Virus record (IMG/VR): IMGVR_UViG_2671181100_000006
Span: 1-22,939 of that record
Origin: a virus
Lineage: Duplodnaviria > Heunggongvirae > Uroviricota > Caudoviricetes
Direction: 5' to 3' (one strand)
DNA: 22,939 nucleotides
Shown: positions 13,531 through 19,123 of the stretch, piece after piece
Position numbering within the stretch: the first letter of the stretch is position 1
Layout: each line of letters begins with the position of its first letter
Translations under genes and position numbers: made by a program
Notes under the pieces: model-generated
What the model was told of the DNA's origin: nothing
Databases searched by the model: none
Seen by the model: only the letters and a program-made list of their open reading frames with translations

Positions 13531-14109
13531 ATGATTAACCCGTCCGAGGTTGGAAAAGCTGGTGAAATGGTCAGGCTGAAAACGCTGGAGGCCATCTGGA
13601 TTCAGGGGAAGCTGCGCATGTGGGGCCGCTGGTCTTACATCGGCGGCGGTAGTGGCGGCAATATGTTTAACCAGTTACTGGCTTCCGGGAAAGTCACTAA
13701 AACAGCCATCAACGAAGCATTACGCCGGATGAAGAAGTCCGGCATCTCGAAGCCAGAGCTTGAGGCGTTTTTTCGTGAAATACTCGCGGGGAAAAACAAA
13801 AGCGGCCTGGCCTTCTGTACAGACGATGAAGGACTGCTGATTGATAAGGTACTGGGGGCAGTCCTCATTACGGGTGGTCATAAAGAGCTATACCACCTGC
13901 TGGTGGAGCATTACCGGTTACGGAAGAGCAAACGCCGCATAGCGGAAGAGCTCTATGAAAAGCATCCAGACTGGTGCTTTATGACATGCAGACGAAGAGT
14001 TGATACATGGCTAAGTTTGGCAGAATCGATGCTGTACGCACCAATGTGTGACGCATTCGGCACAAATGGCGACAGATTTTACTTGCAAAGTGAGCCAGAA
14101 ACTGCTTGA
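13531..14109 (+). CDS. Q: Late-gene antiterminator Q (phage 82-type family)
   Basis: Start placed at the ATG (MINPSEV...) with GGAG RBS, in frame with the longer track ORF. Motif KLRMWGRW resembles the ERWGAW signature of phage 82-type Q proteins. Followed by a terminator. Confidence 0.65.
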   Translation: MINPSEVGKAGEMVRLKTLEAIWIQGKLRMWGRWSYIGGGSGGNMFNQLLASGKVTKTAINEALRRMKKSGISKPELEAFFREILAGKNKSGLAFCTDDEGLLIDKVLGAVLITGGHKELYHLLVEHYRLRKSKRRIAEELYEKHPDWCFMTCRRRVDTWLSLAESMLYAPMCDAFGTNGDRFYLQSEPETA

Positions 14110-14154: not shown

Positions 14155-14186
14155 AAAAAAAACCCGCTTAAAGGCGGGTTTTGTGC
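14155..14186 (+). terminator. Rho-independent terminator after Q (possible tR' or insulating terminator)
   Basis: A8 run, hairpin ACCCGC-ttaaag-GCGGGT, then TTTTG. Confidence 0.6.
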
Positions 14187-14260
14187 GAAAAATAGCCACT
14201 CCAAGATGGCCCATTAAAGCATGGTAAAATACGTGTTAACCCCACAAAGAGGAGTTAGAC

Positions 14261-14500
14261 ATGGCTATTACCCTGCATCAAAAAGAAATCATGATTCTCA
14301 TGACGGACCCCAACTTAAAAGTGCCGGTCCAACACACCAACTTCCCTTTTGAGCATCCATACAAAATTGATTCGGCTATAGAGCAGCTATATCGGATGGG
14401 ATACATTACAGCAATACAGTCGAAATCTGATTCTAGTTGGCTCGCCACTTCAATCACACCAAAAGGTTATGTCTTTCTTAACGAGGCAGGGTTGGTTTAA
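14261..14500 (+). CDS. Hypothetical small protein (79 aa), moron between Q and the lysis cassette
   Basis: Strong RBS AGAGGAG. Upstream extended -10-like element TGGTAAAAT at about 14228-14240. Followed by its own terminator. Confidence 0.6.
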   Translation: MAITLHQKEIMILMTDPNLKVPVQHTNFPFEHPYKIDSAIEQLYRMGYITAIQSKSDSSWLATSITPKGYVFLNEAGLV

Positions 14501-14531
14501 TAGAATTTCAGCAACTGTGTATATCAAAAGT

Positions 14532-14556
14532 AAAACCCCGCTTCGGCGGGTTTTTT
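14532..14556 (+). terminator. Rho-independent terminator
   Basis: AAAACCCCGC-ttcg-GCGGG followed by TTTTTT. Confidence 0.65.
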
Positions 14557-14665: not shown

Positions 14666-15052
14666 ATGTCCGAACCAATAACCGGCACAGGCTTAGCTGG
14701 TGGCGCTTTAACTGGGGCGAGTGTTTACGGGCTATTAACCGGTACAGACTACGGTGTTGTGTTCGGGGCATTTGCTGGTTCCGTCTTTTATATAGCGACA
14801 GCGGCCGATTTGAGCGCCCCACGACGGATGGCATATTTCGTTGTGTCCTATATTGCTGGAGTTCTGTGCTCCGGGCTGGTCGGTTCTAAGTTATCCGACC
14901 TTACCGGGTACAACGATAAGCCTCTGGATGCAATTGGTGCCGTAATCATTTCGGCATTGGCCGTAAAAATACTCACCTTCCTGAACAATCAGGATATTGG
15001 CTCGCTGGTGGCGCTAATAACGCGCCGGGGAGGTTCCGGTGGTACTAAATGA
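14666..15052 (+). CDS. Holin (multi-TMD small membrane protein)
   Basis: 128-aa Gly/Ala-rich hydrophobic protein with several predicted TM helices and a charged C-terminus, first gene of the lysis cassette. RBS GAGGGGGA. Confidence 0.6.
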   Translation: MSEPITGTGLAGGALTGASVYGLLTGTDYGVVFGAFAGSVFYIATAADLSAPRRMAYFVVSYIAGVLCSGLVGSKLSDLTGYNDKPLDAIGAVIISALAVKILTFLNNQDIGSLVALITRRGGSGGTK

Positions 15053-15320
15053 TCCTACTGCAACCATCAATGCGCTGTTATGTGCTGGTGTCGTTGTTAC
15101 GTTGATGTTCTATCGCCGCAGAGACTCACGTCATCGTAAGTGGGTGTCGCGGCTGGCATGGCTGATAACAGTGATTTACAGCTCTGTGCCGTTGGCGTAT
15201 CTGTGCGGCATCTATCCCTATTCATCATGGCCCACCATTGCGGCCAATATCATGATCCTTGTTGTGCTGCTGAGCGTAAGAGGCAATGTAGCGCGGCTGG
15301 TTGATGCACTGAGGCACTAA
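15039..15320 (+). CDS. Small membrane protein of the lysis cassette (second holin / antiholin-like)
   Basis: 93 aa with three hydrophobic segments. GTG start preceded by GGGAGG. Overlaps the holin 3' end and its stop overlaps the endolysin start. Confidence 0.5.
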   Translation: MVLNDPTATINALLCAGVVVTLMFYRRRDSRHRKWVSRLAWLITVIYSSVPLAYLCGIYPYSSWPTIAANIMILVVLLSVRGNVARLVDALRH

Positions 15321-15949
15321 TGAATCAAACACAATTCCAGAAGGCGGCTGGTATCAGCGCCGGGTTAGCTGCGCGCTGGTATCCGCATATTACAGCTGCG
15401 ATGAAAGAGTTCGGCATCACTGCTCCACTCGATCAGGCAATGTTCATTGCTCAATGCGGCCATGAAAGCCTCGGTTTTAACAGGGTGGTGGAGAATTTCA
15501 ACTACAGCATCGCCGGGCTTGCTGATTTTGTTCGTTACGGCAGGTTAACGCAGGATCAGGCCAATTCCCTCGGGCGTAGCCAGTCGGAAACAGTGTTACC
15601 TCTGGAGCGCCAGCGGGCTATCGCCAACATTGTCTATAGCAAGCGGTTGGGTAACAACAGGGCAACTGATGGATGGGCTTATCGTGGGCGCGGACTTATT
15701 CAAATAACCGGATTGTCAAATTACCGGGACTGCGGTAACGGGCTGAAGGTTGATCTAGTGGCACAGCCAGAATTACTGGAGCAGTCCTCGTACGCGGCCC
15801 GTAGTGCAGCGTGGTTCTATGTCTCAAAAGGTTGCTTGAAATATCCGGGTGAGCTTGTCCGGGTTACTCAGATTATCAACGGCGGACAAAACGGGATTAA
15901 TAACCGGCGCGCTCGCTTCCTGAAAGCAAAATCGGTACTGGTGGTGTGA
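15320..15949 (+). CDS. Endolysin, glycoside hydrolase family 19 (chitinase-like lysozyme)
   Basis: GH19 signature ...WAYRGRGLIQITGLSNYRDCG... and catalytic-region CGHESLGF. Sits between the holin genes and the spanins. Confidence 0.75.
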   Translation: MNQTQFQKAAGISAGLAARWYPHITAAMKEFGITAPLDQAMFIAQCGHESLGFNRVVENFNYSIAGLADFVRYGRLTQDQANSLGRSQSETVLPLERQRAIANIVYSKRLGNNRATDGWAYRGRGLIQITGLSNYRDCGNGLKVDLVAQPELLEQSSYAARSAAWFYVSKGCLKYPGELVRVTQIINGGQNGINNRRARFLKAKSVLVV

Positions 15950-16227
15950 TCATGGGAATCGAAGCTATCGCGGGGCTGGTGGTTGTCATCCTGGGTGCTA
16001 TCGCTGGCGCGTTCGGCATCGGCCATGCTCGCGGGACCAGTAAGGCAGAAGCCAAAGCCGATCAGCAGCGTACCGAAGAGAACGCCGCCGCCACCGTCGC
16101 CGCGGCAGAACGTAAGGCGGAAGTTGTGAAAGAGGCAAGCGATGTACAGCAAACCGTTAGTCATATGCCTGATGACGATGTTGATCGCGAGCTGCGCGAA
16201 AAGTTTACCCGCCCCGGTAGTCGTTGA
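15946..16227 (+). CDS. i-spanin (Rz-like inner-membrane spanin subunit)
   Basis: N-terminal TM segment (IAGLVVVILGAIAGAFGI) followed by a charged periplasmic domain. Start is GTG at 15946 or ATG at 15952. Confidence 0.6.
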   Translation: MIMGIEAIAGLVVVILGAIAGAFGIGHARGTSKAEAKADQQRTEENAAATVAAAERKAEVVKEASDVQQTVSHMPDDDVDRELREKFTRPGSR

Positions 16228-16357
16228 TACGGCCTGCAGCTGGGTGAGGGTCATCTACCTGACCGACCACGATATTGACGTGCTGGATAAGCAGACCAAG
16301 CGCGACATTCTGGCGCATAACAAAGCAGTGGAAGTCAACTGCCAGAAAGGGAAGTGA
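16142..16357 (+). CDS. o-spanin (Rz1-like outer-membrane lipoprotein), overlapping the i-spanin in another frame
   Basis: Signal peptide with lipobox (MTMLIASC). Begins inside the i-spanin gene in a different frame and extends beyond it. Confidence 0.6.
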   Translation: MYSKPLVICLMTMLIASCAKSLPAPVVVDTACSWVRVIYLTDHDIDVLDKQTKRDILAHNKAVEVNCQKGK

Positions 16358-16418
16358 TATTGCTCAAAATTAAATGAGATTTATCTTAATTGCTTTAGTG
16401 CCAGGAAGTAGATTGAAG

Positions 16419-16664
16419 ATGCTGCAATTGGCAGTATCACTCTGGGACATAACAATGGGACAGTATTACTACGTCAATAAAAATGTTCAGGCAAACGGAG
16501 ATCATGAGGTGCATGTCACCGGGTGTACCTTTATGCCTGCATCAGAAAACCGCGTGTACCTTGGAATATTTGAAACCTGCCGTCCTGCAGTAGTAGAAGC
16601 GAAGAAATATTATTCTCAATCAAATGGTTGTTATTACTGCTGTAGAGCTTGTCATACTTCATAG
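16419..16664 (+). CDS. Hypothetical small protein with Cys-rich C-terminus (…NGCYYCCRACHTS)
   Basis: Track ORF 16374-16664. Start uncertain (ATG at 16374, 16419 or 16455); AGGAAG lies upstream of 16419. Followed by a terminator. Confidence 0.4.
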   Translation: MLQLAVSLWDITMGQYYYVNKNVQANGDHEVHVTGCTFMPASENRVYLGIFETCRPAVVEAKKYYSQSNGCYYCCRACHTS

Positions 16665-16682
16665 TTAACCAAAAACAATCGC

Positions 16683-16708
16683 AAGGTCGCCAATGGCGGC
16701 CTTTTTTA
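16683..16708 (+). terminator. Rho-independent terminator
   Basis: AAGGTCGCC-aat-GGCGGCCTT (one G-U wobble) followed by TTTTTT. Confidence 0.5.
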
Positions 16709-16731
16709 TTGCCAGAAGCAGGAGAAGAAGC

Positions 16732-16926
16732 ATGTTAACAGTAAAAGTAATGTCACCAGATGGTGGCGAAGAAATCCATTGCGGCCTGAGCGTTGGTTTC
16801 AACCCCAATCAGCAGAGTATCGCAGTGTCGGGAATGGACCAGAACGTTTTCCTGAAGCAGGGAGAAGTGGCGTACGTGATGAACGCAAACGGAAAGACCA
16901 TTTCCCGTTACGAGCACTTGACCTGA
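16732..16926 (+). CDS. Hypothetical small protein (64 aa)
   Basis: Start at the internal ATG (MLTVKVMSPDGG...) preceded by AGGAG; the longer track ORF would run through the terminator. Confidence 0.5.
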   Translation: MLTVKVMSPDGGEEIHCGLSVGFNPNQQSIAVSGMDQNVFLKQGEVAYVMNANGKTISRYEHLT

Positions 16927-17264
16927 CAATAAGCAGCACTGGCGCCCTTCATTGAAGGGCATCAATAATGATAAACCGAAGCATCTGCCTTAAGTGTTAT
17001 AAAAAACCCCGTGGAGGAAATCCCAAAGCTACGGGGTGCTGTACAGCCAGCCAATGACTGATTGTAGCCACGAAGTTGGTTTATTTTCTACTGGTTGAGA
17101 ATAAAACTGAGAGCCAGGAAGGCTTGAGAGTGGCTCATTCATGAGCTCACGGGTAGAACGGCAGACTTTGTCATGGCAGAGCAAAGTTATAAGTTAGTTT
17201 AGGTAACATTTCGGATATAACAAGCGTAGCGGGGTATTCCTAATAATGGAGCACCGCAGCTAAA

Positions 17265-17303
17265 GCATTACAGGAGCCATTCACCGAGTGGCTTCGATAA
17301 TGC
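17265..17303. repeat. Copy 1 of a ~40-bp nested stem-loop element (GCATTACAG-gAGCCAttcaccgagTGGCTtc-GATAATGC)
   Basis: Outer inverted repeat GCATTA/TAATGC; inner stem AGCCA/TGGCT; loop TTCACCGAG. Lies 25 nt upstream of the ATG at 17329. Confidence 0.6.
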
Positions 17304-17328
17304 TCCCCACATCGCACAGAGGTAAGAC

Positions 17329-17574
17329 ATGGCAGAGATCACCGTATCCGAACAAATCCGCCTGGATATCATCAAAAAAGTTAACTACGACACCGCAGCG
17401 GCCAAGCTGGCCATTGACTGGGTAGGGGACAGCTATCTGAAGTCTGAGCTATTCGCAGACTCTTTCGATCGTGTTTTCACGGAAAGCGAGATTGTCTCGA
17501 AGACCCGTAAGGCCATCCAGGAAGCGACCGAAGCGCTGGCGCTGTTTGATACCAGCGCAGAGCAGGCGAGCTAA
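17329..17574 (+). CDS. Hypothetical protein (81 aa)
   Basis: RBS GAGGT. Flanked on both sides by copies of the stem-loop element. Confidence 0.6.
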   Translation: MAEITVSEQIRLDIIKKVNYDTAAAKLAIDWVGDSYLKSELFADSFDRVFTESEIVSKTRKAIQEATEALALFDTSAEQAS

Positions 17575-17575
17575 G

Positions 17576-17614
17576 GCATTACAGCAGGCATTCACTGAGT
17601 GCCTGTGATAATGC
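17576..17614. repeat. Copy 2 of the stem-loop element (GCATTACAGc-AGGCAttcactgagTGCCTg-TGATAATGC)
   Basis: Same outer inverted repeat. Inner stem is AGGCA/TGCCT, a compensatory G-C swap relative to copy 1 that preserves pairing. Begins right after the stop codon of the 17329-17574 gene. Confidence 0.6.
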
Positions 17615-17679
17615 CGTGCTCAATTGCGGTACTGTTGTTTCCCCTGTTAATCTGTCCCAAACAAACCGATGGGGATAGG

Positions 17680-18060
17680 GACGTGAAAAAGTTACTTTTT
17701 GCAGCATTAATTGGTGTTTCAGCTTTAACAATTACCGCATGTGCGCCAACAGTCCAGAAAGTAGATTACAACCAGAGATCAATGCTTTTATCTCTTGGAA
17801 TGAATAAAAACGACGTCATGCAGATCATGGGGTCGCCACGCAGGACTGATGTGAACCAGGAACGCGAACGCTGGATATACTGGAATAAGGCTCTCTATGG
17901 TTACACAATCATTGATAACGAACAATTGGCTAACGATCGACTGGTTATAACGTTCGTTAATGGTAAGGTCACCAAGTGGGGTCAGCAAACGCTGACTGAT
18001 GACATAATGGAGTCATCACAAAAGAGTGCACAGGCTTATGCTGAGGCATTCAAGAAATAG
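17680..18060 (+). CDS. Phage lipoprotein, BamE/SmpA-OmlA-like (moron)
   Basis: Start at GTG (MKKLLFAALIGVSALTITAC...) giving a signal peptide plus lipobox ITAC; the longer track ORF start is unlikely. BamE-like assignment (...LSLGMNKNDVMQIMGSPRR...ERWIYW...) is from memory. Confidence 0.55.
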   Translation, partial: DVKKLLFAALIGVSALTITACAPTVQKVDYNQRSMLLSLGMNKNDVMQIMGSPRRTDVNQERERWIYWNKALYGYTIIDNEQLANDRLVITFVNGKVTKWGQQTLTDDIMESSQKSAQAYAEAFKK

Positions 18061-18079
18061 ACATTTCAGTCAAATGATA

Positions 18080-18104
18080 ACCTCGCTTTGGCGGGGTTTT
18101 TTTA
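18080..18104 (+). terminator. Rho-independent terminator
   Basis: CCTCGC-tttg-GCGGGG (one G-U wobble) followed by T8. Confidence 0.6.
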
Positions 18105-18125
18105 TATCTAAAAGAGGTAAAACCG

Positions 18126-18311
18126 ATGAGCTTTAAACATGAACTTGGTCAGGTGGTAACCGTTACTATCAGTGAAGAAAAAGGGCATATCAAAGCTCGC
18201 GCTGAATATACGCATAGCCCCAATCAGTACCTTATTCATTATCACGCAGCAGACGGGCGAGCTGTAGACGCATGGTTTGAAGAAGGGGAGCTGTCTCCAT
18301 CTGCACTGTAG
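18126..18311 (+). CDS. Hypothetical small protein (61 aa)
   Basis: RBS AAAGAGG; compact ORF between a terminator and copy 3 of the stem-loop element. Confidence 0.5.
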   Translation: MSFKHELGQVVTVTISEEKGHIKARAEYTHSPNQYLIHYHAADGRAVDAWFEEGELSPSAL

Positions 18312-18317
18312 ACGCAC

Positions 18318-18360
18318 GCATTACAGAAGCCCTTCACATTGCGAGGAGCTTTGATAATGC
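18318..18360. repeat. Copy 3 of the stem-loop element (GCATTACAG-AAGCCCttcacattgcgagGAGCTTt-GATAATGC), more diverged
   Basis: Same outer GCATTACAG...GATAATGC arms. Inner region has an insertion and one stem mismatch. Begins 7 nt after the stop of the 18126-18311 gene. Confidence 0.5.
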
Positions 18361-18498
18361 GAATGAATATCATTATCGATGGATGGAAGGGGGTGTGTAG
18401 ACGTTTAGATGTCTAAATGTCTACATGGTCGATTTCTCCTGGCAATGTGCAAATGATAGTCATTATCATTTAAGGGTCCTCCCAGAGGGGGAGGTTAC

Positions 18499-18520
18499 CA
18501 CGGGGCGGCGGACTCGCGGA
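18499..18520. other. Candidate cosN (cohesive-end site); predicted 12-nt cohesive end GGGCGGCGGACT at 18503-18514
   Basis: CACGGGGCGGCGGACTCGCGG matches the phage lambda cosN region as I recall it (TACGGGGCGGCGACCTCGCGG) at 18 of 21 positions. Lies ~115 bp upstream of the Nu1-like small terminase gene, the lambda arrangement. Confidence 0.55.
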
Positions 18521-18631
18521 AAACGGCTAGTTTTCATTTTTCATAGTCATCATCATCATGTGCACAGGTTATTGATTTTCCAGATGTCGGATTTTCAATG
18601 ATGTCGAATCGTATAAAAAGTGTTCACCATC

Positions 18632-19123
18632 ATGGATCAGGAAATCGCTACTTTAAAACTCAATATCAACCAGCTTGCCGGGATTACTGGCGTACACCGG
18701 CAGACCGTCGCTACCAGGCTAAAAAATGTCAGTCCCGCCCAGGGAAGCAACAGCAAACTTAAGTTGTATCTTGTCACCGATATTCTGACAGAATTAATGA
18801 TCCCGACGGTTTCCTCATCGAATCTTGAAGAGATGACACCCCCTGATCGCCTCGCTCACTGGAAAGCAGAAAACGAGCGGTTGAAATTTGAAGTAGATAC
18901 CAAACAACTTATCCCCGCCGAAGACGTCGCACGTGAATTTTCAATGATGGCGAAAGCCGTCGTCATGGTACTTGAAACACTTCCGGACATTCTTGAGCGC
19001 GACTGTGCACTTACGCCGGTTGCGGTATCACGCGTGCAAAGCGTGATTGATGACCTGCGCGATCAGGTTGCCCAAAAAGTAATGGACGCTGAACCAGAGG
19101 AGGATGAGCCAGAGGAGGACTGA
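18632..19123 (+). CDS. Terminase small subunit (lambda Nu1-like, N-terminal winged HTH)
   Basis: N-terminus LKLNINQLAGITGVHRQTVATRL... parallels lambda Nu1 (VNKKQLADIFGASIRTIQNW...); acidic C-terminus. Start is ATG at 18632 or GTG at 18620. Stop overlaps the large-subunit start (ATGA). Confidence 0.7.
   Translation: MDQEIATLKLNINQLAGITGVHRQTVATRLKNVSPAQGSNSKLKLYLVTDILTELMIPTVSSSNLEEMTPPDRLAHWKAENERLKFEVDTKQLIPAEDVAREFSMMAKAVVMVLETLPDILERDCALTPVAVSRVQSVIDDLRDQVAQKVMDAEPEEDEPEED

Follow-up and report, generated by a model that had tools for sequence, protein, structure and literature searches.

We analyzed a stretch of viral DNA of 22,939 nucleotides (nt) from a member of the Caudoviricetes (IMG/VR record IMGVR_UViG_2671181100_000006, positions 1 to 22,939; hereafter the window), which is the late region of a lambda-like prophage with Klebsiella prophages and phages as its closest relatives. 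Our focus is the interval at 16358-18317, where five small genes, here named O1 to O5, lie between the spanin genes and cos, and where copies of a short conserved hairpin are set among the genes. We consider it probable that this interval is an array of promoterless cassettes within a Q-dependent late operon, in which the hairpins act both as signals at messenger RNA 3' ends and as linkers for recombination. More tentatively, the hairpin might represent a new class of structured RNA element in temperate Enterobacterales phages, including P22 and phi80, one that marks the 3' ends of cassettes and combines an RNA processing or stability signal with a recombination linker.

A conserved hairpin on the sense strand

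The hairpin element is 39-43 nt long, is built as GCAUUACAG, a covarying stem and GAUAAUGC, and lies on the sense strand in all copies. As a DNA motif it consists of GCATTACAG, a variable stem of 6-7 bp, the loop TTCNNNGAG and then yGATAATGC; the RNA form is made up of GCAUUA, a CA/GA internal loop, a covarying upper stem and UAAUGC. Three full copies occur on the + strand of the window, against 0.02 expected by chance: copy 1 at 17265-17303 (66.5 bits; -20.7 kcal/mol, z -6.2), copy 2 at 17576-17614, 1 nt after the O3 stop codon (65 bits; -22.1 kcal/mol, z -5.9), and copy 3 at 18318-18360, which has a longer loop and is the last element before cos (48.6 bits; -16.1 kcal/mol, z -4.4). A decayed copy (16935-16971, + strand) has kept its upper stem and lost its lower stem, folds at -13.6 kcal/mol, is 60% identical to the repeat at 17249-17303, and aligns to full copies in other loci; a model scan of the 22.9-kb window gave no fourth scoring copy. 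The stem-loop elements noticed in a preliminary description of this DNA, which was made from the letters and their reading frames, are these four copies of a single motif. The variant represented by copy 3 also precedes the cos region in four other loci (L001, L027, L037 and L054).

Scanning IMG/VR for the invariant arms recovered more than 120 contigs with 90 distinct sequences, and the fold (6 bp, the CA/GA internal loop, then at least 7 bp) was tested on 65 distinct copies. Pairing was found in 98.5% of cells, with compensatory changes in six of the seven upper-stem pairs (115 cells) and a score that none of 500 shuffles reached; in controls with a shifted register, pairing fell to 28-49%. 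The diverged copy in P22 retains its lower stem by means of three G-U pairs. Among the copies, G-U and U-G pairs number 61 vs 7 A-C and C-A pairs, and of the three window copies, two have the more stable fold on the sense strand. This excess of G-U pairs and the preference for sense-strand folding imply that the structure belongs to the transcript, or else to the top DNA strand. Together, the aligned copies show a structure that is selected on the sense strand.

A role as an intrinsic terminator was rejected because no U-tract follows the stem: the three stems are succeeded by CGTGCTCA, TCCCCACA and GAATGAAT, which hold no T-run, and the terminator scan did not call them. No Rfam 15 family matched the window at its gathering score, and none overlapped the hairpins at E values up to 10 within 16300-18700, where the weak matches fall on the two intrinsic terminators described below. 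A search of the literature by motif, neighboring genes and phage topics found no description of the element.

Position and distribution of the element

The loci used for position and context were gathered by exact match to the invariant arms. In this set, the element begins -1 to 8 nt past the stop of a preceding open frame (45 codons or more) in 84 of 124 copies (68%), as against 4.6% of random positions on the same strand, and the open reading frames (ORFs) upstream of the copies belong to at least 28 families. When 106 IMG/VR loci were oriented by the element, matches to lysis genes all lay upstream and matches to terminase or HNH genes all lay downstream, on the same strand. The window and two phage records were scanned from end to end, and copies were found only in the gap between the lysis and terminase genes.

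In phi80 a copy directly follows rha and is unannotated in a richly annotated record; the element is also present in mEp390, phiP27, the cdtI phage, Fels-1, ST64B, Pectobacterium ZF40 and P22. Of 5426 complete E. coli genomes, 326 have it, and copies are likewise found in DH5alpha-type phi80 strains and in Nissle 1917. A pattern scan across genomes (596 Gb, 17 fixed bases) yielded nine canonical folds among the 120 matches listed, most of which are chance matches, as is to be expected of a pattern and a search space of this size; all six of the nine canonical copies with an identified source come from Enterobacterales. The diverged P22 copy lies after rha at 40312-40346 (2013-2047 of locus L253), and the annotated 25-codon orf25 of that phage (40329-40406) starts inside it, so that this ORF call may be spurious.

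Exchange of genes together with their 3' hairpins

The mosaicism of lambdoid phages is well known and what defines its joints is less clear; in the cargo region between lysis and terminase genes, the hairpin motif sits at the joints. In over 100 E. coli genomes and in many phages, the match to the O3 module has the exact limits 17262-17614, with copies 1 and 2 of the hairpin as its left and right edges. Other breakpoints of similarity fall at 16687-16696, in the terminator of O1, and at 18102, in that of O4. The inner stem was common to 71% of the copy pairs that had only the upstream flank in common and to 37.5% of those that had only the downstream flank in common, with a background of 16%. 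Since the variable stem tracks the upstream flank, the unit of exchange is mostly a gene plus its 3' hairpin. O1 and O2 travel as a pair, as do O4 and O5. As judged from these alignments, the interval is made up of about four putatively exchangeable cassettes: O1-terminator-O2, a minus-strand unit, O3, and O4-terminator-O5.

Transcription of the interval and a proposed mechanism

Two intrinsic terminators were found on the + strand. One follows O1 (16683-16703, or 16683-16710 as a feature) and has a 9-bp stem with 6 GC pairs, then TTTTTTATT; the other follows O4 (18079-18098, or 18079-18105 as a feature) and has an 8-bp stem with 5 GC pairs, then TTTTTTTAT. The preliminary description had given several of the small genes terminators of their own, which is borne out for O1 and O4; the scan found none after O2, O3 or O5, which are followed instead by a hairpin element without a U-tract. 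In a scan with the sigma-70 consensus, none of the five genes had a + strand promoter at a suitable position upstream, and the only + strand match (16428-16456) overlaps the O1 start codon; a simple consensus scan of this kind could miss weak or non-sigma-70 promoters.

In the mechanism that we propose, transcription of O1-O5 would start mostly at the Q-dependent late promoter that lies before the holin genes, and polymerase modified by Q would pass both internal terminators and reach the terminase genes. At the level of RNA, each hairpin would serve as a stability or processing signal at the 3' end of the preceding gene, in the manner of the RNase III sites of T7 or of exonuclease barriers of the repetitive extragenic palindrome (REP) type. 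At the level of DNA, the invariant arms would supply about 17 bp of common sequence, through which homologous recombination could swap units consisting of a gene plus its hairpin. Of the insertions, O1 and the O4-O5 pair would come closest to morons, with possible expression in the lysogen as well.

Several points weigh against this reading. We infer both of the roles given to the hairpin, as an RNA signal and as a recombination linker, and RNase III substrates typically have a longer helix than this one, which measures about 16 bp and has a 2x2 internal loop. A protein-binding site is another possible role of the invariant arms, and the 3' arm contains GATAAT, a -10-like hexamer that reads TGTGATAAT in the copy after O3, by which the arm might act as a promoter. 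Because the loci were gathered by exact match to the arms, their lower stem is fixed from the outset and the sample leans towards close relatives. Finally, O1 or O4 could still be true morons expressed in the lysogen. The cassette reading nevertheless offers a testable mechanism for the exchange and expression of promoterless cargo genes, and the hairpin is a practical marker with which to delimit cargo cassettes in prophage annotation.

The five small genes

Because each of the five + strand ORFs matches a phage protein family (PHROG, E 9e-23 to 3e-70, in each case a family of unknown function), they are conserved genes and not chance ORFs, and Shine-Dalgarno sequences precede all five. The set of five small genes between spanins and cos thus remains as it was first described, and three of the starts given then are retained. 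The start of O1 was corrected from 16419 to 16455: the ATG at 16455 aligns in nine of nine homologous O1 loci and gives the family length of 68-69 amino acids (aa), and the candidate at 16419 was discarded as not conserved, with an ATG in only two homologous loci. The start of O4 moves from 17680, which reads GAC, to the GTG at 17683, and the resulting 125 aa equal the length of its RefSeq homologue.

The matches of the five proteins in Pfam, PHROG, NCBIfam and PADLOC include no structural, lysis or defense family; NCBIfam returned no family for any of them and PADLOC no defense system, and a sequence search of the PDB with all five gave nothing below E=0.07. These results agree with the earlier assignment of the interval to an accessory (cargo) region, and the homology and structure searches proposed at that time did not place the five proteins in structural or lysis accessory families. 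The preliminary description named bor-like and lom-like genes of lambda as cargo of this right-end region; a Pfam scan of the five proteins at E up to 0.1 matched neither the Bor nor the Lom family. At the right end of lambda itself, bor is present and lom is not known to be.

O1 (16455-16664, + strand) encodes a 69-aa Cys/His-rich protein belonging to a widespread stand-alone 68-aa family. We found 595 homologues, of which 25 that were aligned are 65-81% identical to O1, and their sources include Klebsiella, Pantoea, an alphaproteobacterium (Temperatibacter) and an Ignavibacteriae genome bin. Eight residues are invariant in the family (H17, H20, C24, C42, C59, C62, C66 and H67), which is enough for two zinc sites, and O1 probably binds two zinc ions. 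The CYYCCRAC terminus reported earlier as a feature of a Cys-rich peptide is present, although it forms part of an invariant C-x2-C-x3-C-H motif of this family and is not a free peptide tail. A structure model of O1 (predicted local distance difference test, pLDDT, 81.5) had no significant fold match. Its chromosomal homologues stand alone among unrelated neighbors in unrelated bacteria, and the family resembles mobile stand-alone genes whose target in the cell is conserved. Conservation in the family is unusually high for 68 aa, and the family has no Pfam entry, no solved relative and no conserved neighbors. About 20 nt upstream of the O1 start lies a short hairpin, TGCTGnAAnnnnCAGC (16420-16434, + strand), which is kept in six phage loci with one compensatory change from C/G to A/T and is absent from three chromosomal homologues; it may be a 5' leader signal specific to phages.

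O2 (16732-16926, + strand; phrog_3909, E=3e-37) encodes a 64-aa protein of unknown function, has a strong Shine-Dalgarno sequence (AGGAG) and adjoins O1 in five other loci. In L001, L003, L041 and L100 it is followed by a full hairpin element.

O3 (17329-17574, + strand) encodes an 81-aa DUF2560 protein of the P22 Orf80 family (PF10834, E=4e-19; 68.9 bits against a cut-off of 25) and is 39% identical to P22 Orf80. By tblastn it occurs in 149 phage records, among them P22, where orf80 lies between rha and gene 3, and every O3 locus examined is in the gap between lysis and terminase genes, beside three different packaging systems. Its model (pLDDT 87.7) has four predicted helices and only generic helical fold matches, and no function is annotated for DUF2560 in Pfam, PHROGs or the phage records. 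On its distribution, O3 behaves as a widely conserved late-region gene and not as strain-specific cargo. Many DUF2560 entries are 92-123 aa long and are 94-97% identical to O3 over only 62-85% of the query; such entries may have arisen by recombination or fusion, in keeping with frequent recombination in the interval, or may have mis-called starts.

O4 (17683-18060, + strand; phrog_18614, E=3e-70) encodes a 125-aa lipoprotein with a BamE/SmpA_OmlA domain, as the preliminary description had anticipated. Read directly from the sequence, it has a signal peptide and the lipobox ITA|C (MKKLLFAALIGVSALTITA|C), and the Ala at position +2 suggests sorting to the outer membrane. The match to PF04355 (25.5 bits, E=1.1e-5) lies above the curated cut-off of 23.2, and most homologues carry the same domain. 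Compared with a working version of the E. coli BamE sequence, O4 is 25% identical over 88 aa (E=0.003). It belongs to a distinct subfamily of about 125 aa, found in prophage late regions here and across Enterobacterales; the domain would support at most a putative role as a subunit of the beta-barrel assembly machinery (BAM).

O5 (18126-18311, + strand; phrog_8618, E=5e-37) encodes a 61-aa protein with one domain of about 55 aa. It is widespread, with 353 representative clusters, has no Pfam family, and is adjacent to O4 in all five other loci that hold both. Apparent distant homologues in long repeat proteins were set aside because they look compositional, and Pfam searches on nine of them gave no shared domain. 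The 68-aa Cys/His family, the BamE-domain lipoprotein and DUF2560/Orf80 form a shortlist for functional study.

Alternative explanations

The five genes could be helpers of the lytic cycle, acting in packaging, lysis timing or virion maturation and expressed only late, which we regard as possible, if rather doubtful. Their place in the late operon, with lysis genes on one side and terminase genes on the other, and their lack of promoters of their own would both be consistent with such a role, as would the placement of O3, which has packaging genes just 3' of it in P22-like, HNH/P27-type and lambda-type phages. However, all five are missing from many related phages that have the same lysis or terminase genes, O1 also occurs in non-phage chromosomal settings, and none of the proteins resembles a known packaging or lysis family.

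A classical moron cluster, as first proposed for this interval, would make each gene an independent unit expressed from the prophage for host fitness or virulence, with O4 as a Bor-like envelope lipoprotein and O1 as a host-directed zinc protein. The strong terminators that O1 and O4 possess would fit this view, as would the GC content of O1 (0.414), O4 (0.426) and O5 (0.468), which is low against about 0.52 in the flanks (lysis genes 0.51-0.59; TerL, the large terminase subunit, 0.53). The distribution of these genes is also patchy among related phages: L001 lacks O1 and has another small gene in that place, after the lysis genes and before O2, and L002, L003 and L128 lack O4-O5 and have other genes or an HNH gene after DUF2560. 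The occurrence of O1 as a stand-alone gene in unrelated bacterial chromosomes and the lack of a structural, lysis or defense match for any of the five point the same way. However, there is no suitably placed sigma-70-like promoter, O1-O5 are all co-oriented with the late operon, O2, O3 and O5 are without terminators, neither Bor nor Lom is matched, and O3, with its many phage records, has a flank-like GC content of 0.528. As an explanation of all five genes, a moron cluster is unlikely in our estimate; the reading holds in part, being plausible on composition and distribution for O1 and O4-O5 and not for O3. As a moron cluster alone, the region is ordinary.

Improbable, in our estimate, is the view of the hairpin as an operator, at which a protein of the phage or the host would bind the RNA or the DNA and regulate transcription or translation of the gene downstream, or as a -10 or extended -10 promoter for the next cassette, as in the promoter-early stem-loops (PeSLs) of T4. 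The invariant arms, the CA/GA loop and the apical AUUC...GAGU do exceed what a simple exonuclease barrier needs, and GATAAT matches TATAAT at five of six positions, with the TGTGATAAT of the copy at 17576-17614 about 70 nt upstream of O4. However, no -35 element is present at a workable spacing (16-18 nt from GATAAT), and with no U-tract either, a T4-type PeSL was rejected. The TG motif is absent from many copies, because 46 of 65 have a C there, at a position that pairs with G17. The distance to the downstream start codon varies widely, and it is with the stop codon of the preceding gene, not with the next start, that the element is associated in position.

Least probable, and very unlikely in our estimate, is a DNA site for a site-specific or single-strand recombinase in an integron-like array read from one upstream promoter. 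In favor of it, promoterless ORFs of one orientation carry on their 3' side an imperfect palindrome whose ends are conserved and whose variable center preserves the structure, the site variant travels with the upstream ORF, and the strand asymmetry is compatible with one folded DNA strand. However, the arms GCATTACAG ... GATAATGC do not fit the attC R''/R' consensus (RYYYAAC ... GTTRRRY), by which an attC site was rejected, no co-occurring partner recombinase was found (the commonest neighbor, DUF2560, is present in only 38 of 106 loci, and no gene of that name is annotated in the phi80 or ST64B regions), and ordinary homologous recombination at the arms, where about 17 of the 39-43 nt are conserved, accounts for the joints.

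A minus-strand unit and the flanking late operon

Between the decayed hairpin and copy 1 lies a unit on the minus strand (16999-17223) that was missing from the preliminary description. It has a promoter-like TTGTTA-N16-TAAACT (17223-17196) and a strong terminator (17038-16999), a combination that no other unit of the interval has. The unit is conserved in eight loci, and in the most divergent of these (L003) the 5' portion of about 100 nt and the terminator are invariant and the middle has diverged. It contains a frame of 51 codons with an ATG that is not conserved; as a structured RNA its fold z-score is only -1.55, and nothing in Rfam overlaps it at E values up to 10. The unit may be a candidate antisense small RNA or a tiny-ORF moron that faces the late transcript.

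Upstream of the interval are a Q-type antiterminator gene (DUF1133/Phage_antitermQ; 13531-14109), two holin genes (14666-15320), a GH19 endolysin gene (15320-15949) and the genes for the i-spanin (15946-16227) and the o-spanin (16142-16357). Downstream are a DUF1441 gene, assigned by PHROG to the terminase small subunit (TerS), and the large terminase gene (18620/18632-21231). The Q-like gene, the lysis genes, O1-O5 and TerS/TerL are all on the + strand. Between the Q-like gene and the holins, a 79-aa ORF (14261-14500) without a Pfam match is flanked, in the region 14156-14556, by terminator-like hairpins at 14156-14182 and 14537-14556; this slot is the one in which Stx phages carry their toxin genes.

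At the right boundary of the cargo region are a cosQ-like site, TATCATTTAAGGGTCC (18464-18479, + strand), and a cosN-like site, GGGCGGCGGACT (18503-18514, + strand), identified from an alignment with the cos of phi80. The joined ends of phi80 align with 18448-18520 of the window, and cosQ/R4 and the 12-nt sticky end GGGCGGCGACCT are annotated in phi80. By this alignment, the cos that had been predicted downstream of the small genes is confirmed as a site of lambda/phi80 type. A near-perfect inverted repeat, TGTAGACGTTTAGA/TGTCTAAATGTCTACA, lies at 18396-18425, between copy 3 of the hairpin and the cosQ-like site, and the word CTGTAGACGCA occurs twice, at 18262 and 18306; the repeat and the words may be candidate protein-binding sites near cos.

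Comparison with known systems

The PeSLs of T4-type phages combine a strong early promoter of sigma-70-like sequence with a terminating stem-loop (Arbiol et al. 2010, PMC2839356; Comeau et al. 2014, PMC4122927). They are short conserved intergenic stem-loop motifs of a hyperplastic region of small non-essential genes of unknown function, where they flank units that are gained, lost or replaced between related phages and where recombination between copies shuffles modules (PMC2839356, PMC4122927), all of which has its likeness in the hairpin described here. Unlike the PeSLs as portrayed there, our hairpin has no workable pair of -35 and -10 elements and no U-tract, is unrelated in sequence, is attached to the upstream stop codon, and sits in the late operon of temperate lambda/P22-like phages. 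It would therefore be analogous to the PeSLs in evolutionary role and not a member of their class.

The RNase III processing hairpins of T7 and the 3' stabilizing hairpins of REP type are likewise intergenic structures of the sense strand that are not terminators. The T7 and REP hairpins resemble our element in having an internal loop and in being placed directly behind a gene of a long polycistronic phage mRNA; unlike them, our element has a shorter helix, of about 16 bp, has arms that are invariant in sequence, and is confined to one genome region. Morons in the sense of Hendrix and Juhala are exemplified by bor of lambda, which lies on the opposite strand. The interval resembles such lambdoid morons in its lysis-to-cos location, in its small genes of foreign composition, in the terminators of O1 and O4 and in the lipoprotein O4, and differs from bor in that O1-O5 share the orientation of the late operon, no promoter was detected before them by the consensus scan, Bor is not matched, and O3 is widely conserved.

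O3 is of the same family as Orf80 of P22 and occupies the same place just upstream of packaging genes, but unlike Orf80 it has hairpins on both sides and adjoins a cos and a Nu1-like terminase of the lambda type; P22 packages its DNA by the headful (pac) route. With integron cassettes the interval has in common the one-orientation promoterless ORFs and the 3' imperfect palindrome with conserved ends and a variable center that preserves structure, and it differs in the absence of the attC core consensus, in the much shorter site and in its setting within a phage late operon. No integron integrase turned up near the hairpins, in analyses that did not include a search aimed at intI. If the cassette reading is correct, the hairpin would be a lambdoid counterpart of the T4 PeSLs with the integron-like logic of an ORF plus its 3' site, by which promoterless cargo moves between otherwise unrelated phages.

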